This document shows positions 34,609 to 49,275 of a stretch of 64,000 nucleotides of DNA, in pieces. The stretch's first letter is position 1. Every line of letters starts with the position of its first letter. Origin of the DNA: an uncultured Chloroflexia bacterium (GTDB taxonomy: Bacteria > Chloroflexota > Limnocylindria > QHBO01); assembly GCA_963716585.1 (NCBI GenBank), contig CAVQTN010000002.1:28480-92479 (forward strand). Direction: 5' to 3'. A program made the position numbers and the translations under genes. Under the pieces are notes generated by a model. It made no database searches. It was not told where the DNA came from and was given only the letters and a program-made list of their open reading frames with translations.

Positions 34609-35051
34609 GCAGCCGGACCGTCAGCCACTGCATCAAGTGCGGACGCGAGGTCGGGCCTGAGGAGACCATCTGCGCGGTCTGCAATCGGGCAGGCATGGCG
34701 ACGCCATCCGCCAGCCAGTACCACGGCACCATGGCGGTGGGCATCGTGGCGGGCGTGGTCCTGATGGCAGTCGCCGCGAGCTGGCTCCTCAGCGGCGTGG
34801 GACCGTACCGCGGCAGCGTGCTCGGCACGCAGGCGGCCCCGGGTGGGCTGCAGGCAACGGTGTCGGTGATGAACCAGGGCACCAAGCCCGGCCGCGCCAA
34901 GTGCCAGCTCATCGCCTACGACGCGCAGGGACGTTCGCTGCAGTCGCGTTCGGTCCTTTCGCCGCAGGTTCCGGGCGGCGAATCGGTGACGTTCGACGAG
35001 GGGATCCCCGCCGTCGAGCAGGCGGCCACCGTCACCGTCGACTGCCAGTAG
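34605..35051 (+). CDS. membrane protein with N-terminal zinc-ribbon (CxxC...CxxC) and extracytoplasmic domain
   Basis: 148 aa. ATG overlaps the preceding stop (ATGA). CIKCGREV...CAVCNRAG, then a TM helix MAVGIVAGVVLMAVAASWLL, then a beta-rich domain with two Cys. Confidence 0.6.
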   Translation: MSSRTVSHCIKCGREVGPEETICAVCNRAGMATPSASQYHGTMAVGIVAGVVLMAVAASWLLSGVGPYRGSVLGTQAAPGGLQATVSVMNQGTKPGRAKCQLIAYDAQGRSLQSRSVLSPQVPGGESVTFDEGIPAVEQAATVTVDCQ

Positions 35052-35058
35052 CGGGACG

Positions 35059-35596
35059 CTACTCCATGACCAGGCGGACCCCGATGACGCCGCGCGACCG
35101 CGGTTGGTCGCTGACCACGACCCAGGCCGCGTAGCTCAGGTCGACGACCCGCTGGTCGGCCGTGCCCCAGTAGCACTCGCACCAGTCGACCACCGGCAGG
35201 CGAGCGCAGCGGTCCGCGCAGACCGTGACGTGGCCGTTGACCACGCCGGTGTAGCGTCCGCCGAGCGCGCCGGGGAGCGCGACCACCGCCCGCCCGGAAA
35301 AGCCGGCCGTGCCGGCATAGTTGCTCGCACGTCCGCTGACCGTGGCCAGCGTCGAGTCGGAGACGGGTATCGCCGGCCCACGAGTCGGCCGCCGAAGTTG
35401 GCGCGCGCTGCCGCGCGTCGACGAGTCGCCGCGCGCGGACAGGACCTGCTGCTCGCGCAACCGCTCGCCCGCGCCGGCTGAGCAACTGACGCTGGATGGT
35501 TGGTGCCTCGAATGACGCCGACACGTTGGGTGATGCCGCGACCAGGACGGCCGCAGCGCCGAACAGGGCGACCAGCGCCCCGAGGAACAGTCTCAA
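35059..35596 (-). pseudogene. secreted protein, possible RlpA-like double-psi beta-barrel domain, frameshifted between signal peptide and mature domain
   Basis: The signal peptide [27 protein letters not shown] is in one frame (from 35596). The domain [71 protein letters not shown] is in another frame and ends at 35059. The shift lies near 35445-35460 in a GC run. Confidence 0.45.
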
Positions 35597-35764
35597 GTTG
35601 TCTCTCCAGTGGAGTCATCGGGCGGCGAAGAGGACGTCGGGCAACGACGTCGGAATGGGCACAGCCACCCGGGATCTGCCTTGGGTCAGGCGCAAGAAGG
35701 GTGCCAGCCGCACGCCAGGCGGTCAAATCGGGAGGTCGGCGGTGGGGGGCGCTATCCTGCCGCC

Positions 35765-37498
35765 ATGACGAGTCACGTGCCCCACCCGCGGCTTGCCGGA
35801 ATGCTCGCCATGGCGCTCATCGCGGCCCTGGCGACCACCGCGCTGGCCGCCGGCCCGCCCTTCCCGGCGCCGGTCAGCGGCCAGGCGGTATACGACCCGG
35901 CCGAGGCCATCGATCCTGCCACGGCAGCCGCGCTCGAGGGGCGCATCGACGCGATCGAGCAGCGCAGCGGGGCCGAGATCGTGGTCTACGCGCAGGTCAA
36001 GCCAGGCATCAGCGAGGAGGAGAACCTCGGCGACGCCAGGGCGCTCATGGACGAATGGGGCATCGGCCGCTCGGGCTTCGACGATGGGCTGGTGATCATG
36101 CTCGGCCTGGACGAGACGAGGCAGCACGGGCGGATCAGCCTGTTCGGCGGATCCGGTTTCCTGAGTGCCTACCTCGACGAAGGCGGGCTCAAGCGGATCA
36201 TCGACGAGCAGATTGTCCCCGCGGCCCGCAGCGGCGACATCGGCGGCGCGTTGGTCAATGCGCTGGACGCGATCGCCGGCCACGTGACAGCCGGCGGACG
36301 CGACCGGCTCAGCACACTGCGGCAAGTCAACGCGGTGTTGGGGCTGGCGGTGGCACCGTTGACCCTGCTGATCCTGGTCGGCATCGCCTTCCGTTCGTGG
36401 CGCCGTGAGGGCGACGATCCCGCGTACCTGGACAGCCCGGCGGTGCTGATGGCCGGGCCGCCGGCCGGCATGACACCGCCGCTGGCGACCGTGATGCGCC
36501 AGGGCAGGGCCACCCAGCACAGCATCGACACGACACTCGTCGAGCTTGCGAGCCGCGGCTACATCGCGTTCTTCAACCTTGATCACGTCAAGGAGGCGCG
36601 CAGCGACTCGGACCCCGACCCGGAGGTCGATCCCACGATCCTGGTGCCCCCTTCGCCGGGCGACGCACGTCCGCTCGCGGCGCCGCAGTCCCTGGCCGAT
36701 CAGACCATCCGCCGTCTGGCGGGCAGCGACGGGCGGCTCAGCCGCAGCTCACTGTGGTCGCTGAACGACAACCTGCGGCCGGTGAAGGCACGGCTCGACG
36801 CCGAGGCGATGCGGCTCGGCTGGTTCGCGCACCTCCCCGGCCCGGCCATCACGCGCTGGACGCTCATCGGCGTGGTCGAGGTGGTGGCCGGCATCGTCGT
36901 GGGGATCATCGGCTTCGTGGTGCCGATCAGCGGCGCGACGCTGCTGGGCGGCGCGATCGTCCTGGGCGGGTTGGTGACCATCGCCTTCGCTCAGGCCATG
37001 AGCAAGCGCACCCCGCAGGGTGCGATGGTCGATGCGATGCTGAAAGCGTACCGGCGCACGCTGCAGAAGACGCTCGAGCAGGCGCGCTCGATGACCGAGG
37101 TCGTCGCGGACGAGACGGTTCGGATCCTGGCCGATACTCCCGACAAGGCCGTGGTCTGGGGCTTTGCCCTCGGCCTGCACGGCGAGGTCTCGACCGTGCT
37201 CGAACGCAGCCTCGAGGACGCGCGTGCGGAACACAGCAACGGCCCGGCCTACTACCCGTACTGGATCAGCACGGCGTCTTCCTCGCCTGCCACCGCATTC
37301 GCCGGCCCCGCTGCCGGCGCCACGGTCTTCCCCGGCAGTGGCAGTGGCTTTTCGGGCTCGGCCATCCCCGACTTTGGCGGCATGTTCTCGGCGCTCGGCA
37401 GCATCGGCTCGTCGCCGCCCTCGAGCTCAAGCAGCTCGGGTGGCGGATTCGGCGGCGGCGGCAGCTCCGGTGGCGGAGGGGCGAGCGGCAGTTTCTAG
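35765..37498 (+). CDS. TPM-domain (TLP18.3/Psb32/MOLO-1) plus DUF2207 membrane protein with Gly/Ser-rich C-terminal tail
   Basis: The start is MTSHVPHP at 35765. Signal/TM, then a TPM-like domain (ALEGRIDAIEQRSGAEIVVYAQV...DDGLVIMLGLD). Central and C-terminal TM helices typical of DUF2207. The C-terminus is SSSSSGGGFGGGGSSGGGGASGSF. Confidence 0.7.
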   Translation: MTSHVPHPRLAGMLAMALIAALATTALAAGPPFPAPVSGQAVYDPAEAIDPATAAALEGRIDAIEQRSGAEIVVYAQVKPGISEEENLGDARALMDEWGIGRSGFDDGLVIMLGLDETRQHGRISLFGGSGFLSAYLDEGGLKRIIDEQIVPAARSGDIGGALVNALDAIAGHVTAGGRDRLSTLRQVNAVLGLAVAPLTLLILVGIAFRSWRREGDDPAYLDSPAVLMAGPPAGMTPPLATVMRQGRATQHSIDTTLVELASRGYIAFFNLDHVKEARSDSDPDPEVDPTILVPPSPGDARPLAAPQSLADQTIRRLAGSDGRLSRSSLWSLNDNLRPVKARLDAEAMRLGWFAHLPGPAITRWTLIGVVEVVAGIVVGIIGFVVPISGATLLGGAIVLGGLVTIAFAQAMSKRTPQGAMVDAMLKAYRRTLQKTLEQARSMTEVVADETVRILADTPDKAVVWGFALGLHGEVSTVLERSLEDARAEHSNGPAYYPYWISTASSSPATAFAGPAAGATVFPGSGSGFSGSAIPDFGGMFSALGSIGSSPPSSSSSSGGGFGGGGSSGGGGASGSF

Positions 37499-37582
37499 GG
37501 CCGCCGCGCCCACGTCATCGAGGCGCGAATCGGGGCGGCGGGCAGCTGGCGGTACTGGCGCCGGCCGGCGAAGGCGGGTATC

Positions 37583-38602
37583 GTGGAGCGCATGCAAGAT
37601 GACCGACGAGGTGGAGGAGGCCGGTCCGGCGGGCGGCCGGGTGGAGCACGGCGCGATTTCGGCCCGCGCCGCGACTTCGGTGATCGCGACACCCGCGGTG
37701 CGCGCCGCGAGTTTCCGCGCGAGCGGCCCTATCCATCTGGCGATCGGCCGCAGGGCGGCCAGCGGCCCTACCCCGGCGGTGAGCACCGCGACCGCGGTAC
37801 GCCGCGACCGATGCCATCGCGCCCCACACCGCGGAGCGCGATGGACGAGGGCGGCATGGCGATTCGCCTCGACCCGCGCCGGCTGTCGCTCCTCAAGCAG
37901 CTCTCCGGCGAGTCCGGACTGCGGCCCGGCGAGCTCGTCACGCAGTGGGTCGAGGAACGACTGGACGCGGAACGCACGGGCAGCCAGGCGCCGGCGACCG
38001 GCAGCGCGTCGGCCGGCGGCAGCGGCTCCGCTTCGCCGGCGCTCGCGGCCCTGACGAGGCGAGTCGACGACCTTGCTCGGCGCGTCGAGCAGCTCACTGC
38101 CACGTCGCTGGCTGCTCCGACCGGGACCGCAGCGGCTGACGATCGACCCGGCTCGGCCGGGAATGACAATGGCCGGCGACGGCGTACCGAGACAGCCACC
38201 GCGGGCACCCAAATCCGCGGGGCGACCACGGGGCGCGCAGCCGCGAGCAAGCGCGCAACGGCGACGGGAGCGCGACGAGCGACCCGAGCCAAGGCACCGG
38301 CACCCACGGAGACAGCAGCGGCGCCCACGGCGACCGCAGCGAAGGCGACCGCGCGCCCGAGCCGCCCGTCCGGCGCCGGCAAGCGCGTGCCTCTCCACGA
38401 CGAGATCGCCCGCATCGTTTCCGAGGCTGGGCCAATGACCGCGGCGCAGATCGCCCAGGCGATCGTCGATGGCGGCCGTTACACCGCGCCGCGTAGCGCT
38501 CGGCCACTCGACGCGGCCATCGTCAACAGCCGCGTCTCGAACCCGATCTACCGCTCGCGATTCCGCCGTCAGGACGGAAAGATCGGCCTCGCCGAAGGCT
38601 GA
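37583..38602 (+). CDS. hypothetical DNA-binding protein: RGG/RDFG-repeat N-terminus, RHH-like segment, coiled coil, basic Ala/Thr-rich linker, C-terminal HARE-HTH winged helix
   Basis: 339 aa. Repeats RDFGPRRDFGDR and RPQGGQRPYPGG. The segment MAIRLDPRRLSLLKQLSGESGLRPGELVTQWVEERL is predicted strand-helix-helix. The C-terminus HDEIARIVSEAGPMTAAQIAQAIVDGGRYTAPRSARPLDAAIVNSRVSNPIYRSRFRRQDGKIGLAE matches the HARE-HTH pattern. Confidence 0.6.
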   Translation: MERMQDDRRGGGGRSGGRPGGARRDFGPRRDFGDRDTRGARREFPRERPYPSGDRPQGGQRPYPGGEHRDRGTPRPMPSRPTPRSAMDEGGMAIRLDPRRLSLLKQLSGESGLRPGELVTQWVEERLDAERTGSQAPATGSASAGGSGSASPALAALTRRVDDLARRVEQLTATSLAAPTGTAAADDRPGSAGNDNGRRRRTETATAGTQIRGATTGRAAASKRATATGARRATRAKAPAPTETAAAPTATAAKATARPSRPSGAGKRVPLHDEIARIVSEAGPMTAAQIAQAIVDGGRYTAPRSARPLDAAIVNSRVSNPIYRSRFRRQDGKIGLAEG

Positions 38603-38609
38603 GCGTCGC

Positions 38610-38819
38610 TCAATCCTCGAGGACGAAGGTCACCAGGATGTTGACCTGGAACTCGATGCTGCCATCGCGGCCGACATTGACGCGCTCCTCCTTGACCCAC
38701 GCGCTGCGGACCTGACGCAGCGTCTTGTTCGCGCGCTCGATGCCCTGGCGGACCGCATCCGCGAAGCTCTCGGTCGAGGTGCAGGACAGCTCGGTGACTC
38801 TCGCAACGGACATGTGCAT
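38610..38819 (-). CDS. dodecin (flavin-binding) family protein
   Basis: 69 aa: MHMSVARVTELSCTSTESFADAVRQGIERANKTLRQVRSAWVKEERV...FQVNILVTFVLED, with AAGGAG RBS. The upstream part of the six-frame ORF is spurious. Confidence 0.8.
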   Translation of the reverse strand: MHMSVARVTELSCTSTESFADAVRQGIERANKTLRQVRSAWVKEERVNVGRDGSIEFQVNILVTFVLED

Positions 38820-38979
38820 GACTCCTTCTTGAGACTGGCTCGGGGAGATTGCCAAGTATCGTCCATTGACGAACGCGCGGTGACGTCGCACACTGTTCGG
38901 CACGAAGCGTCGGCGTACTCCTTTTCGGATTGCGATTGCGAGCGTTTCTGCATCGGTCCGAGGAGGCCCGAACAACACC

Positions 38980-39186
38980 ATGCCAACAGGCACCATCAAG
39001 CGCATCGTTGCGGACCGTGGATTCGGCTTCATTGCCGACGATCGTGGCAACGAGCACTTCTTCCACTTCTCCGGCTTGGCCGATGGGCTGCAGATCGAGC
39101 AGCTCCAGGTCGGTCAGCAGGTCAACTTCGAGACGGAGCGTTCCGACCGCGGTCCCCGCGCAACGAACGTCGCACCGGTCGAGTAG
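38980..39186 (+). CDS. cold-shock domain protein (CspA family)
   Basis: 68 aa: GTIKRIVADRGFGFIADDRGNEHFFHFSGL, with RNP1/RNP2-like motifs. It has an about 160 nt 5' region typical of csp genes. Confidence 0.85.
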   Translation: MPTGTIKRIVADRGFGFIADDRGNEHFFHFSGLADGLQIEQLQVGQQVNFETERSDRGPRATNVAPVE

Positions 39187-39219
39187 GACCAAAGCGGCCC
39201 GTCCGGGCCGCTGACCACG

Positions 39220-39256
39220 GAACGAGGCGCCCTTCGGGGCGCCTCGTTCGTTCTCC
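39220..39256 (+). terminator. putative intrinsic terminator after csp (13-bp stem, UUCG loop, U-containing tail)
   Basis: GAACGAGGCGCCC-UUCG-GGGCGCCUCGUUC followed by GUUCUCC. A second upstream hairpin is GCGGCCC-GUCC-GGGCCGC. It lies between convergent genes. Confidence 0.5.
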
Positions 39257-39299
39257 CGACTGCGTTCCCTCGTCCGTCCGTGCCGGAGTGCCGCGGGAC

Positions 39300-40319
39300 T
39301 CAGGCATGGCCGCCGCTCCACGCCAGGAGCTCGTCGGGGGCCAGGGTGTTGACCACCGATCCCGCCTCCACCCCACAGCGAGCCGCCCGCTCACAGCCGA
39401 AGGGCTGCCAGGCCAGCTGCCCGGGGGCGTGCGCGTCCGAGTCGATGGCGAAGCGGCAGCCTGCCTCGACGGCCAAGCGCAGCAGGCGCTTGGGCGGATC
39501 CGCTCGCTCCGGGCGCGAATTGACCTCGATCGCCTTGTCGAAGCGAGCCGCGGCGGCGAACACGATCTCCGCATCGAATGTCGACTCGGGGCGCGGCCGC
39601 CTGCGGACCTTGAGCCTCCCGGTGACGTGTCCCAGGACGTCGAGATGCGGGTTGGCGAGCGCGGCAACCAGCCGGCGGGTCATCGGCTCCGCCGGCATGC
39701 GCAGCTCGGAATGGGCGCTGCCCACGACGACGTCCAGGCGCGCAAGCAGCTCCTCGGACTGGTCGAGCGTGCCATCCGAGAGGATGTCGACCTCGATGCC
39801 GGTCAGAATGCGGAACGGCCCGAGCTCGGCGTTGAGCGCGGCGACCTCCTCCAGCTGTGCGTGCAGGCGTTCCGGCGAGAGCCCGTTGGCGACCGTCAGC
39901 CGCGGCGAGTGGTCGGTCAGGACCATGTACTCGTGTCCAAGGTCTCGCGCCGTCTCGGCCATCTCGCGGATCGGCGCGCCGCCGTCGCTCCAATCGGAAT
40001 GCACGTGGCAGTCGCCGCGAAGGGCGTTGCACAGCTCCTCACCGCCCTCGACCGCCGGTCGCCCGCCGGTCGCCTCCAGGCGACGCAGGTACACCGGTTC
40101 CTCCTGGCGCATCGACTCCAGGATCGTGCGCTCCAGGACCTCGCCGATTCCCGGCAGCTGCCGCAGCGAGCCACTCCGCGCATGGCCGGCCAGCTCTTCG
40201 GGGCCGAGCGCGGCGAGCGAATCCGCCGCGTTGCGAAAGGCGCCGACGCGATAACCCGGCTCGTGGGCCGCCTCGAGCAGGAACGCGATGCGACGCAGGT
40301 CGGCGACGACGTCGCGCAT
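39300..40319 (-). CDS. PHP-domain phosphoesterase with N-terminal PolX-type 8-kDa helix-hairpin-helix domain (PolX lacking the polymerase core)
   Basis: 339 aa. N-terminus LRRIAFLLEAAHEP...LRQLPGIGEVLERTI (HhH of the PolX lyase domain), then PHP motifs GDCHVHSDWSDG, LTDHS, GIEVDI, and C-terminal DSDAH. No palm/thumb segment. Confidence 0.7.
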   Translation of the reverse strand: MRDVVADLRRIAFLLEAAHEPGYRVGAFRNAADSLAALGPEELAGHARSGSLRQLPGIGEVLERTILESMRQEEPVYLRRLEATGGRPAVEGGEELCNALRGDCHVHSDWSDGGAPIREMAETARDLGHEYMVLTDHSPRLTVANGLSPERLHAQLEEVAALNAELGPFRILTGIEVDILSDGTLDQSEELLARLDVVVGSAHSELRMPAEPMTRRLVAALANPHLDVLGHVTGRLKVRRRPRPESTFDAEIVFAAAARFDKAIEVNSRPERADPPKRLLRLAVEAGCRFAIDSDAHAPGQLAWQPFGCERAARCGVEAGSVVNTLAPDELLAWSGGHA

Positions 40320-40323
40320 CGGA

Positions 40324-41262
40324 CTAGGGAAGCGTCAGGATGCGCCGCGGATTTTCGATGGTCATCTGCTGGATCTCGCCCTCCCCCACGGCGGCGGTGC
40401 GCAGCTTGGGCAGGAAGTGCTGCTGCAGGTAGACGTAGCCGAAGCCGCCGTAGGCCTTCAGCTGCGCGTTGTGGCAGACATCCTGGCTGAGCAGCAGCTG
40501 TTCGCCGAAGCCGCGCTCAAGCAGCTCGACGATCAGCTCGATCAGCCGCGGCTCGGCGGCTTCCTCGATCCCGAAGCGCTGGCCCAGGAAGTCGAACTGC
40601 AGGTTCGCGCCCCGGTCCAGGATCGCAAGGTAGTGGTCGAGGTTCGGGTACGAGTCGGCGTGTCCGATGACCACACGCGCCGGATCCACGGACTCTTCCT
40701 CGAAGATGGCCAGCTGGGCGAGGCCCACCGGCGACATCACGGCATGGGTGCTGATCGCCATGCCGGTCTGCCGCGCAGCGCGCGCCGCGGCGCGATGCAC
40801 GCGCTCCTCGCGAGCGCTGACCCACGGCTTGTCGGTGCCGATCTCGCCGATGATTCCCGGCCGCACCCCCGTGCCGGCGACCCCGTCGGCGAGCTCGCGG
40901 ATCATCTCGCCGGCAAGGTCGTCGACGCTGCGTCGATCGATGAGCGCCTCGACCGGGTAGTAGGCCTCGCGATACCAGCCGGTGCCCATCACGATCTGCA
41001 GCCGGGTGCTGCCCGCCAGGCGGCGCAGCCGCTCCGGGTCGCGGCCCACGCCCGGGGCGGTCAAATCCACCAGCGTCGCGCCGCCGCGGCGGCGGAAGTC
41101 GCGCAGCTCGTCCGCGACGAGCTCCTCGTCGGGCGTCAGCTCCCAGTAGTCCCATCGGTCTCGGACGTGCCACAGCGAGATCCCGGTGTGCTCGTGCGGC
41201 AGCGTGAAGCCAACGCTGTCGGGAGGAATCGGTCCGGCGACGGTCATGACGTGGGGTGCCAT
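40324..41262 (-). CDS. phosphotriesterase family (PTE/Php) metal-dependent hydrolase
   Basis: The start is MAPHVMTVAG at 41262. GFTLPHEH (the His-x-His motif of the amidohydrolase fold) and downstream His/Asp ligands. The six-frame ORF N-extension is spurious. Confidence 0.8.
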   Translation of the reverse strand: MAPHVMTVAGPIPPDSVGFTLPHEHTGISLWHVRDRWDYWELTPDEELVADELRDFRRRGGATLVDLTAPGVGRDPERLRRLAGSTRLQIVMGTGWYREAYYPVEALIDRRSVDDLAGEMIRELADGVAGTGVRPGIIGEIGTDKPWVSAREERVHRAAARAARQTGMAISTHAVMSPVGLAQLAIFEEESVDPARVVIGHADSYPNLDHYLAILDRGANLQFDFLGQRFGIEEAAEPRLIELIVELLERGFGEQLLLSQDVCHNAQLKAYGGFGYVYLQQHFLPKLRTAAVGEGEIQQMTIENPRRILTLP

Positions 41263-41423
41263 CTGGCTCACCTCGGCGATCGGTTCGCTCCGGCCAGCGC
41301 ACAGGGGCCGCCGCAGCGAGGATTTCGTGGATGGCGCCATGTTGCCATGCGCGGCGCGAAGGCATGGCGCCGACCCCCGGCAGCGGCTAGCCTTGCCGCA
41401 CCCCGAGCAGGAGCAACGGACGC

Positions 41424-42695
41424 ATGGCCCTCGAGACCAATCGGACGGCAATCCCGGACAACAGCTGGACCGCGGCTCAACAGGACGTCGACGACGCGGC
41501 CGCGCGCCTGCAGCTCGACGACGGCATGCGACGCGTGCTGCGCGTGCCGAAGCGCGAGCTGCAGGTCGACTTCCCGGTAACGATGGATAACGGCACGGTC
41601 CGGACGTTCACCGGCTTCCGCGTCCACCACAACATCAATCGCGGGCCGGCAACCGGTGGCGTGCGCTTCACCCGCGATCTGACCCTCGACCTCGTGCGTG
41701 CCCAGGCCATGCTCAACAGCTGGAAGGCGGCGCTCGTCCAGATTCCGTATGGCGGTGCGGCCGGCGGCGTTGTCGTCAACCCCCGGCGGCTGAGCCGCCA
41801 CGAGCGCGAGGGGCTCACCCGGCGCTACGCGACAGAAATCAGCCCGTTCATGGGACCGGAGCGTGACATCCCGACCCCGGACGTCAACACCGGGTCACAG
41901 ACCATGGCCTGGATCATGGACACCTACTCGATGCACGTCGGCCACACCGTCGCGGCGGTCGTCTCGGGCAAGCCGCTCGAGATCGGCGGCACGCGCGGAC
42001 GGCGCGAGGCGACCAGCCGCGGCGCGTTCCGCACCATTGCCGCCTGCGCCCGAACGATCGATCTGAGCCTCGACGGTGCGCGGGTCGCGATGCAGGGCTT
42101 CGGCCGGGTCGGCAGCATCCTGGCCGAGATGCTGTGCCAGGCCGGCTGCCGGGTGATCGCCATCGCCGACGATCGAGATGCGGTGACGCGGGCGTCGGGC
42201 ATCGACGTCGACCGGGCGACCGGCTGGATCCACGAGCACGACACGATCGGCGGCCTGCCGGACACCGAGCCGATGGATCGGGCCGAGATCTTCTCAGCCG
42301 ACTGCGAGATCCTCGTCTCGGCAGGGGTCCAGAACCAGGTCACTGCCGCGAACGCGGGCGCGGTCCGGGCGCGGATCGTGGCCGAGGCGTCGAACGCGCC
42401 CACGACGCCCGACGCACACGCCATCCTGCGCGAGTCGGGTATCCGGGTCATCCCCGACATCCTGTGCACGGCCGGCGGCATGGTGCTCGGCTACTTCGAG
42501 TGGGTCCAGGACATGCAGTCCTTTTTCTGGACCGATGCGGAGATCACCGATCAGCTCGACCGGATGATGGACGCCGCCTTCGCCGAGGTCGTGGCCACCA
42601 GCGAGGCGAAGAAGGTGGACCTGCGCAGCGCGGCGATGATGGTGGCGGTCGGTCGCGTGGCGGAGGCGACGCAGCTGCGCGGTCTCTACCCGTAG
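41424..42695 (+). CDS. glutamate dehydrogenase paralog lacking two of the three active-site lysines (probable non-catalytic or regulatory GDH-like subunit)
   Basis: 423 aa, collinear with gdhA (20282..21553). PAKGG becomes PATGG and GGGKGG becomes GGAAGG. The second Lys (WKAA) and the Asp box PTPDVNT are retained. Confidence 0.85.
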
Positions 42696-47997: not shown

Positions 47998-49275
47998 GTG
48001 ACCCTGCGCCTGCACGACGCTCGCCGCGGCGAAGTCGTCCCCTTCGAACCTATCGATGGCGAGCCAATCGGCCTGTACGTGTGCGGCGTGACGCCCTACG
48101 ACACCGGCCACCTGGGTCATGCGTTCACCTACGTCAGCTTCGACGTTCTGCATCGGTACCTCGAGTACCTCGGCCATGACGTTCAATACGTGCAGAACCT
48201 GACCGACGTCGACGACGACCTGCTGCGCAAGGCACGCGAGCTCGGCGAGGACTACATCGAGCTCGGCAACCGCCACGTCACGACCTTTCTGACCGAGATG
48301 GCGGCGCTCAACTGGCTGCCGCCGGATCGCCTCACGCGTGCCACCGAGCACATCCCCGAGATGCTGGCGCTGATCGGGCTGCTGCTCGACCGTGGCCATG
48401 CCTACCTCGCCGAGGGGCACGCCTACTTCAGCGTCAACAGCGACCCGCATTACGGCGAGCTGTCCAAGCTGACAGCGGTGGAGATGCTGCCCATCGCCAA
48501 CGAGCGCGGGAACGTGCCGGACATGCCCGGCAAGCGCGACCCGCTCGACTTCGTGCTGTGGCAGCCATCGGCAGCCGACGAGCCGTCGTGGCCGTCCCCC
48601 TGGGGAGCGGGACGTCCCGGCTGGCATATCGAGTGTTCGGCCATGAGCATGACCTACCTCGGCGAGCGCTTCGAGATCCATGGCGGTGGCCTTGATCTGA
48701 TCTTCCCGCATCACGAGTCGGAGATCGCGCAGAGCGAGGGCGCCACTGGCCAGCGCCCCTTCGTCAGCTACTGGATGCACACCGGCATGCTCAGCCACGA
48801 GGGCGACAAGATGAGCAAGTCACTGGGCAACCTCGTGCTCGTGCGCGATCTGCTGGCTTCCTATCCGGGCGACGCGATCCGGCACTACCTCATCTCGCGC
48901 CATTACCGTGCCGAGGTGCACTACGACCACGCCGCCCTCGAGGCGTCGGTGCTGCAGGCCGGTCGCCTTCGCTTCGCCTGCCGCGTGGCCGAAGATCTCG
49001 AGCCACTCGCGCCGGCGCTGGCCATCCCCGCGGAGTTGCATCCGATCGTCGCCGAACACCGCACCCGCTTCCTGGCGGCCATGGACGACGACCTCGACAC
49101 GCCGGCCGCGCTCGTCGAGCTGCACGCGCTCGCCGGCCTCTGCCAGCGCACCGAGGAACGCGACGTGATCACCCAGGCGGGCTGGATGGTGCGCGAGCTC
49201 GGCGCTCGCATCCTTGGACTGCGGCTGGCGACACCGGCTGCGCGGCTGAAGGCGGACGAGGCGGTCCCGGCGTGA
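47998..49275 (+). CDS. cysteine ligase of the CysRS family; short form with MshC-like features (Cys-tRNA synthetase or mycothiol ligase)
   Basis: 425 aa. HIGH (TGHLGHAFTY), zinc-ligand Cys, KMSKS (GDKMSKSLGN), and the PSWPSPWGAGRPGWHIECSAM block. The C-terminus is about 140 aa after KMSKS, shorter than canonical CysRS and similar in length to MshC. GTG start at 47998 is 7 nt after a TAGAAT hexamer. Confidence 0.75.
   Translation: MTLRLHDARRGEVVPFEPIDGEPIGLYVCGVTPYDTGHLGHAFTYVSFDVLHRYLEYLGHDVQYVQNLTDVDDDLLRKARELGEDYIELGNRHVTTFLTEMAALNWLPPDRLTRATEHIPEMLALIGLLLDRGHAYLAEGHAYFSVNSDPHYGELSKLTAVEMLPIANERGNVPDMPGKRDPLDFVLWQPSAADEPSWPSPWGAGRPGWHIECSAMSMTYLGERFEIHGGGLDLIFPHHESEIAQSEGATGQRPFVSYWMHTGMLSHEGDKMSKSLGNLVLVRDLLASYPGDAIRHYLISRHYRAEVHYDHAALEASVLQAGRLRFACRVAEDLEPLAPALAIPAELHPIVAEHRTRFLAAMDDDLDTPAALVELHALAGLCQRTEERDVITQAGWMVRELGARILGLRLATPAARLKADEAVPA

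Follow-up and report, generated by a model that had tools for sequence, protein, structure and literature searches.

What does a bacterial protein do that joins an arginine-rich disordered tail, two putative DNA-binding domains and a coiled coil in a single chain, and where does such a protein begin? This question is raised by an open reading frame (ORF) at positions 37583 to 38602 on the forward strand of a 64,000-nucleotide stretch (the window) of contig CAVQTN010000002.1, which comes from an uncultured Chloroflexia bacterium of the class Limnocylindria. The members of this class are abundant in soil and freshwater and are uncultivated. The ORF is present, with 339 codons from a GTG and an ATG at 37592. 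It lies in a region of about 75% G+C in a host genome that is itself high in G+C, and, as is usual with such a base composition, other ORFs overlap it on the antisense strand and in the other frames. It is a real, conserved and uncharacterised gene of this class of Chloroflexota, and its product has a new, lineage-restricted architecture assembled from known DNA-binding modules. The features described below are not due to chance: in an alignment of 53 orthologues, conservation per column is 74–84% in the two folded modules. Two results are of most practical use, namely the corrected, predicted leaderless start of the gene and the class-wide conservation of its disordered tail. Residues of the protein are numbered from the ATG at 37592.

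The initial annotation of this locus described a multi-module nucleic-acid-binding protein with four elements and no characterised relative. Each of the four elements was recovered independently, with the start of the ORF corrected to the ATG at 37592, and the ribbon-helix-helix (RHH)-like unit, the coiled coil, the basic linker and the winged helix are all present in the structural models. The absence of characterised relatives was also borne out. The full-length protein had no significant match in Pfam or NCBIfam, and HARE-HTH was not matched even at E ≤ 1. PADLOC, PHROGs and a PDB sequence search gave no family-level match, and the homologues found in databases are all hypothetical proteins. 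A paralogue was sought elsewhere in the window and none was found, and an Rfam scan of positions 35000–42000 gave no match.

Start of the gene and its promoter

The start was analysed by locating the core motif M[AS]IRLDPRR in 55 loci and then reading the upstream sequence in frame. In every locus that does not run off the end of its contig, the frame is free of stops over 66–113 codons upstream to a conserved ATG, and the insertions and deletions in this extension preserve the frame despite its variation in length. In about 50 loci, the conserved ATG opens a peptide of the form M-x-[YFND]-[DE]-R-R-(P/G)-D-R-R-x-G-G-G-R-P-G-G, which reads MQDDRRGGGG in the clade of the window. Heterozygosity at codon positions 1/2/3 is 0.29/0.21/0.44 and 0.33/0.34/0.55 at the conserved ends of the extension, compared with 0.66/0.61/0.56 in the non-coding spacer. 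The G+C content of third codon positions (GC3) is 0.43 at codons 2–8 after the upstream ATG, versus 0.76 further downstream, and there is no comparable dip after the internal Met, where GC3 is 0.83. Frame-specific G+C alone was not decisive for the extension being coding.

The promoter points to the same start. A TAnnnT hexamer (TATCGT, TATGGT, TAGAGT or TAAGGT) ends 6–8 nucleotides before the ATG in 45 of the 50 loci, and [C]TGGCGC (or TGGCCA/TGGTCA), which may be a −35 element or an operator, is found at a fixed place upstream in 50 ATG-aligned loci between unconserved flanks. Leaderless bacterial genes are marked by a TANNNT box some 12 bp ahead of the start codon, with no Shine-Dalgarno sequence (PMC3160421). 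The gene matches this geometry, its TATCGT ending 7 nucleotides before the ATG. Because the hexamer ends so close to the conserved ATG, the messenger RNA is predicted to be leaderless, its transcription start being placed from the geometry of the promoter, and because the GTG at 37583 falls within the −10 box, this codon is not the start. A generic sigma-70 promoter scan did not call the promoter, which has a weak −35 in its conserved form. The product is, as judged from these comparisons, a protein of 336 residues (35.2 kDa, pI 11.6). The proposal of the initial annotation that translation begins at the upstream ATG and includes the repeat region is thus supported by the conserved peptide, third-position variation, the GC3 dip and promoter geometry in about 50 loci.

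The public record of the gene (P0331) is a 248-residue short form that begins at the internal Met at 37856, and public annotation starts the gene 88 codons too late. It is most improbable that this short form is the true product and the repeat region an untranslated leader: gene callers choose it here and choose the equivalent start for most homologues, GAGG sits 5 nucleotides before the internal ATG in the window, and the GC3 of the extension (0.74) is below that of neighbouring genes, but the frame-keeping indels in every complete locus, the conserved ATG and peptide at which the extension ends, the pattern of synonymous-site substitution, a promoter positioned for a transcript beginning at the upstream ATG and a GC3 ramp found only there all speak against it. 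Moreover, conservation does not extend to the GAGG: the D/E codon that precedes the internal Met is GAG in some loci and GAC in others, so that there is no conserved Shine-Dalgarno sequence at this position. An additional internal start may be used besides the ATG at 37592. Standard gene callers truncate the gene, probably on account of its predicted leaderless transcript and the unusual composition of its first 88 codons. As this truncation affects most genomes, searches and domain censuses that rely on public annotation miss the tail.

The promoter also contains repeats. In one subclade of orthologues, an inverted repeat, GCTGG-N12-CCAGC, covers the region between −35 and −10. In the window, the promoter (37546–37570) carries CTGGCG-gta-CTGGCG as a direct repeat, as well as a 12-bp perfect palindrome, CGCCGGCCGGCG, at 37559–37570 in the −35/spacer region. 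Relative to shuffled sequence, the promoters show no significant excess of inverted repeats, and about half of the loci have none. An autoregulatory operator was therefore set aside, the repeats being unenriched and confined to a subclade; they may be an operator, and autoregulation is a hint that lacks statistical support.

Elsewhere in the window, 13 likely genes have a TAnnnT hexamer (TAGAAT, TATACT, TATCAT and others) 6–8 nucleotides before a candidate start, with examples at 47998 (+), 53575 (−), 51606 (−) and 30305 (+); the chance expectation for such pairs, about 4, is a rough estimate and was not computed. These pairs suggest that leaderless messenger RNAs are frequent in the host organism.

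Modules of the protein

The full-length AlphaFold2 model was built as a monomer on an alignment of 121 sequences. In this model, the first folded module, residues 89–130, consists of an extended N-terminal segment followed by helices at 95–108 and 112–128, with a predicted local distance difference test score (pLDDT) of about 92. The segment MAIRLDPRRLSLLKQLSGESGLRPGELVTQWVEERLDAER has a mean column identity of 84% in the 53 orthologues, and it follows the pattern of RHH proteins: a strand, a helix, a G-x-x-x-G-E turn and a second helix. When the orthologues were scanned singly, weak matches were found to RHH_10 (19 of 53, best E 0.003), RHH_9 (5 of 53) and RHH_4 (2 of 53), and distant paralogues match RHH_1 and NikA-like models weakly. 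The sequence in the window itself has no Pfam RHH match, and PDB profile searches with the full-length, winged-helix and RHH alignments brought up nothing beyond coiled coils and an artefactual match to a RecA-fusion repeat. The RHH-like segment that had been proposed for this protein can thus be retained with respect to the two helices after an extended segment and the weak matches of the homologues, without a match of the window protein; as a fold assignment from models and sequence patterns, RHH is probable and sub-threshold.

The RHH-like module is followed by a helix at 149–173 (pLDDT about 90), which comprises three heptads with an a/d pattern, its hydrophobic residues being spaced 3-4-3-4. 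Homologues match the coiled-coil models DUF7310 (41 of 121), Matrilin_ccoil and HalX, and a PDB profile search with the full-length alignment matches only coiled coils, such as Lpp, sigma-1 and YadA. This helix is likely to be an oligomerisation element.

The second folded module lies at the C-terminus. Residues 268–333 form a compact H-(b)-H-H-b-b domain with a pLDDT above 90, and residues 266–336 modelled alone reach a pLDDT of 88.4 and a predicted template modelling score of 0.79. The model contains the three helices and the beta-hairpin wing of a winged helix, together with a long H2-H3 loop. In the Foldseek ranking, the Z-beta domain of ZBP1 comes first, followed by IdeR, MarR-type and MotA winged helices, indicating that the fold is that of a generic winged helix, with no HARE-HTH member singled out. 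At the sequence level, the Pfam gathering cut-off of the HARE-HTH family (PF05066) is 25.9 bits. The window domain alone scores 12.5 bits (E 0.2) and the family consensus 24.7 bits (E 3e-5, over positions 9–69 of 71); 30 of the 121 homologues scanned singly match at E ≤ 0.1 (best E 4.9e-5), and nine of ten distant relatives score 16–23 bits. Neither the window protein nor the consensus nor the paralogues reach the cut-off. An hhalign comparison of a broad winged-helix alignment with 51 N-terminal domains of RNA polymerase delta gave an E of 0.003 and a probability of 10% over 51 columns in the correct register, and a comparison with a single delta sequence gave no match. The domain had been described as a clear HARE-HTH. 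It is a winged helix whose best Pfam match is PF05066, and in view of its scores below the cut-off and the hhalign probability, it is best called HARE-HTH-like on sequence grounds, short of membership in the curated family.

The remainder of the protein is largely disordered. Residues 1–88 are predicted to be disordered (pLDDT about 46–51) and are dominated by R (24%), G (22%), P (15%) and D (10%); their net charge is +8. Across the family, this tail varies between 66 and 113 residues, yet its net charge remains within +6 to +10 and it contains about six aromatic residues; recurrent motifs are RPGG, GDRP, GGRP and FGDR. A search with the tail alone gave no match. The repeats had been likened to RGG boxes, a comparison that stands for the Arg/Gly/Asp/Pro-rich disordered region as such and not for the box itself. 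The tail of the window protein contains one RGG and three RG, with a family mean of 0.9 RGG, where an RGG box has at least two closely spaced RGG or RG repeats. The tail is RG-rich and polyampholytic and is not an RGG box.

A second disordered region, of 91 residues, links the coiled coil to the winged helix. It is rich in A (30%), T (18%) and R (15%) and has a net charge of +13, in agreement with the coiled coil and basic Ala/Thr-rich linker of the initial annotation. An AT-hook, [KR]..GRP[RP]K, is found in the linker of 45 of 54 loci, for example as KRGPGRPRK or KRRGRPPK, and Pfam AT_hook is matched by 22 of the 121 homologues. The GRP core of the hook is absent from the window protein, in which the linker reads NGRRRRTE, and from loci L002, L004, L005, L007 and L048. 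Tandem DNA repeats of 18 and 21 nucleotides at 38253–38341 (+) encode the Ala/Thr-rich part of the linker (APTETAAAPTATAAKAT...), and the length of the linker differs widely between orthologues, consistent with expansion and contraction through repeat slippage.

Table 1. Features of the gene, its promoter and its product in the window
Feature	Position	Strand	Evidence
−35-like element TGGCGC, 17 nucleotides upstream of the −10 box	37556–37561	+	Fixed position in 50 ATG-aligned loci
−10 box TATCGT (TAnnnT), ending 7 nucleotides before the ATG	37579–37584	+	Same geometry in 45 of 50 loci
True start codon ATG, as predicted; protein begins MQDDRRGGGG	37592–37594	+	Conserved ATG and N-terminal peptide, GC3 dip
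N-terminal disordered Arg/Gly/Pro/Asp-rich region, residues 1–88, with RDFG/DRP/RPGG-type motifs	37592–37855	+	Low pLDDT, composition
RHH-like module (probable), residues 89–130, MAIRLDPRRLSLLKQLSGESGLRPGELVTQWVEERLDAERTG	37856–37981	+	AlphaFold2 helices, conservation, weak Pfam RHH matches
Short Ser/Ala/Gly linker, residues 131–147	37982–38032	+	Composition, low pLDDT
Amphipathic helix or short coiled coil, residues 148–174	38033–38113	+	AlphaFold2, coiled-coil matches in homologues
Basic Ala/Thr/Arg-rich disordered linker, residues 175–265	38114–38386	+	pLDDT 40–48, composition
C-terminal winged helix, HARE-HTH-like, residues 266–336	38387–38599	+	
Stop codon TGA	38600–38602	+	

Distribution and genomic neighbourhood

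A search of 5.8 billion proteins found 291 relatives, all named hypothetical, and those with an organism label come from metagenome-assembled genomes of Candidatus Limnocylindria or Chloroflexota. Most are 190–220 residues long and start at the equivalent of the internal Met; about a dozen have an Arg/Gly/Pro/Asp-rich N-terminal extension. An exhaustive HMMER search of 1.84 billion cluster representatives gave 274 clusters at E ≤ 1e-3, of which 49 also reach E ≤ 1e-30. Among 185,579 species-representative genomes, a scan located 95 loci, nearly all labelled Limnocylindria or Chloroflexota; the few labelled otherwise are taken as binning errors. The family is small and essentially confined to Limnocylindria, an uncultivated class with 164 public genomes in GTDB R220 (PMC13212565). 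It follows that the gene is widespread in this class. Two loci (L055 and L056) represent one and the same contig. In one assembly (DATFEC01), two contigs in a single bin (L031 and L033) each carry the gene and its neighbours, which is more likely to reflect strain heterogeneity or redundant assembly than a true duplication.

Other layouts occur. Distant members of 157–244 residues keep the RHH, the coiled coil, the basic linker and the winged helix and lack the R/G/P/D tail. One tail-less member from Limnocylindria, HUG47358.1, is a paralogue, as it is found in a different gene context. The same winged helix also stands at the C-terminal end of a PifA-like KAP NTPase (P0257), an XRE-type helix-turn-helix protein (P0264) and a multi-pass membrane protein (P0258). 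Of these, P0257 (824 residues, from a Logan contig) is recognised by PADLOC as PifA at an E of 4e-68. Mobility in defence contexts is typical of HARE-HTH domains (PMC10853773). As judged from these fusions, the winged helix therefore appears to behave as a mobile module, and its fusion to a PifA-like defence NTPase hints at a portable DNA-sensing module that is also used in defence proteins.

The gene is part of a conserved block, described here as a nine-gene synteny in about 80 loci. In essentially all 80, the order is DUF1684, DUF4307, TPM/DUF2207, the gene itself, dodecin (−), a PolX-like HhH+PHP gene (−), phosphotriesterase (−) and glutamate dehydrogenase. This conservation indicates a vertically inherited core gene of Limnocylindria and also that adjacency does not amount to a functional link, since the whole block is syntenic class-wide. 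A cold-shock gene (CSD, 68 residues) at 38980–39186 (+), between the dodecin and PolX-like genes, is found only in the six of 80 loci that are closest to the window and looks like a clade-specific insertion into the block. A functional tie to the cold-shock, dodecin or PolX-PHP neighbours was set aside for these two reasons, and the earlier suggestion of a stress-responsive factor is left without support. A toxin-antitoxin module was likewise rejected, as the gene is flanked by a TPM/DUF2207 membrane protein upstream and by dodecin on the opposite strand downstream and has no toxin neighbour.

Several properties of the neighbours can be recorded. In the TPM/DUF2207 gene (35609–37498, +), TATCCT ends 6 nucleotides ahead of an in-frame ATG at 35765, and this gene may also be leaderless, with 577 residues, as opposed to the 629-residue ORF from a GTG; its Gly/Ser-rich C-terminus, which ends in GSF, is conserved in most loci directly upstream of the promoter discussed above. 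The dodecin ORF (38610–39050, −; 146 residues) has a dodecin domain at residues 81–144 only, and its N-terminal extension overlaps the cold-shock gene on the opposite strand. This extension is probably spurious, the real dodecin gene being about 70 codons long. The PolX-PHP neighbour (39300–40319, −; 339 residues) consists of an N-terminal HhH (HHH_8) and a PHP domain, with no polymerase catalytic domain detected, and it adjoins dodecin in 58 of 80 loci.

Function and comparison with known systems

On the basis of the models and the sequence comparisons, the protein can tentatively be read as an oligomeric, multivalent DNA binder that would act as a nucleoid-associated or architectural protein or as a global regulator. 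The RHH module would dimerise and read DNA through its beta-ribbon, and the coiled coil would stabilise this dimer or join dimers to each other, as in Mnt. Two winged helices on flexible basic linkers, which carry an AT-hook in most orthologues, would touch further DNA sites, and the two basic disordered regions would contribute non-specific affinity for nucleic acids. The resulting oligomer could then bridge or coat DNA. This architecture is supported by the paralogues, which retain the RHH, coiled coil, basic linker and winged helix together. RHH, HARE-HTH, AT_hook and coiled-coil models are, furthermore, recurring weak Pfam matches in the 121 homologues and in distant paralogues.

Several observations weigh against a multivalent, architectural DNA binder. 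For the window protein, the RHH, HARE-HTH and coiled-coil assignments are all below curated thresholds. The invariant residues of the RHH strand (S/A, R and D) would fit a sequence-specific regulator equally well. The AT-hook has been lost in the window's own clade, which weakens a role in binding AT-rich DNA or in silencing for this particular protein. Finally, the HARE-HTH domain of RNA polymerase delta is known to bind the polymerase rather than DNA.

The protein might instead be a sequence-specific and possibly autoregulatory transcription factor, in which an RHH dimer or tetramer occupies a defined operator, as with Mnt and Arc, and the winged helix makes a second specific contact, so that it would not be a general chromatin protein. 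This appears rather unlikely, although it has a precedent, as RHH proteins with a C-terminal coiled coil, such as Mnt of phage P22, are classical operator-binding repressors. The strand residues predicted to face DNA are, moreover, invariant in orthologues and different in paralogues, as expected for diverging DNA specificities, and the gene's own promoter carries the conserved CTGGCGC, with GCTGG-N12-CCAGC in one subclade and the palindrome in the window. However, the inverted repeats are not significantly more frequent than in shuffled sequence and are lacking in about half of the loci, and the element at −35 may be no more than a −35 box. Basic disordered sequence makes up about 180 of the 336 residues and most orthologues have an AT-hook, both of which are unusual for a simple repressor, and there is no conserved divergent or downstream target gene, as the whole block is syntenic.

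The reading as a multivalent DNA binder can be extended to a lineage-specific bacterial chromatin protein, in which DNA would be bridged jointly by a dimer of the RHH module and a tethered pair of HARE-like winged helices, while the charge-conserved Arg-rich disordered regions, with Arg and aromatic residues as “stickers”, would condense the nucleoid, possibly together with RNA. Such a protein would be a functional analogue of linker histones or H-NS of independent origin, in an ancient and uncultivated class of Chloroflexota. In this full form, the proposal is speculative and unlikely to hold as a whole. If the reading as a multivalent DNA binder is right, Limnocylindria would have a class-wide core DNA-organising protein, with a combination of tail, RHH, coiled coil, AT-hook linker and HARE-like winged helix that is not described elsewhere, and this protein would be a candidate for studying the role of disordered basic regions in the organisation of the bacterial nucleoid.

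A factor that binds RNA or associates with RNA polymerase is very doubtful. RNA would be held by its Arg/Gly/Asp-rich tail, in the manner of the RG-rich tails found in RNA helicases, and its HARE-HTH-like domain would dock on the polymerase like delta, thereby coupling transcription with RNA handling. The best Pfam match of the winged helix is indeed the family that includes delta, but the comparison with the 51 delta domains reached a probability of only 10%. The tail is Arg-rich with interspersed Phe/Tyr and Gly, yet with its one RGG it matches no definition of an RGG box, and the tail-only search had no match. The cold-shock gene is adjacent in the six closest loci and is not conserved beyond them, and the RHH and AT-hook are DNA-binding modules.

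A multivalent DNA binder remains the preferred reading, and it can be placed among known DNA-binding proteins. RHH repressors that end in a coiled coil (P22 Mnt; the Arc/CopG/MetJ superfamily) share with the predicted module a strand with alternating hydrophobic residues, two helices and a G-x-x-x-G/S-E turn, and, as in Mnt, a short coiled coil that could pair dimers follows the RHH. In contrast to these repressors, no RHH Pfam model is matched at threshold, the module is set in a protein of 336 residues between an 88-residue disordered tail and a second DNA-binding domain, and there is no adjoining toxin or partition partner gene. HARE-HTH domains (PF05066, including the N-terminal domain of RNA polymerase delta, ASXL, HB1 and the N-termini of restriction enzymes) resemble the C-terminal domain in being winged helices, with PF05066 as its best match, and in their mobility, since this domain also occurs in other fusions. 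The C-terminal domain differs in its signature, RVSNPxYRxRF, which is specific to the family described here, in its scores below the cut-off and low hhalign probability with delta, and in structure searches that do not favour HARE-HTH members.

The layout of an oligomerisation module, a basic flexible linker and a C-terminal DNA-binding domain, as found in the bridging nucleoid proteins Rok, H-NS and Lsr2, is similar in architecture only, and no homology with these proteins is detectable. The DNA-binding domain of Rok is likewise a winged helix, and the paralogues match WH_Rok weakly. Rok, H-NS and Lsr2 have an AT-hook-like motif, to which the canonical AT-hook of most orthologues corresponds, although it is missing from the window protein; the additional RHH module and the N-terminal disordered tail set the protein apart from all three. 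The linker histones H1 and H5 combine a winged-helix globular domain with a basic tail rich in Ala, Lys and Pro. In the protein of Limnocylindria, the tail is N-terminal to the winged helix and is rich in Arg and Thr rather than Lys; there is no sequence relationship, and the protein, which is bacterial, also has an RHH module.

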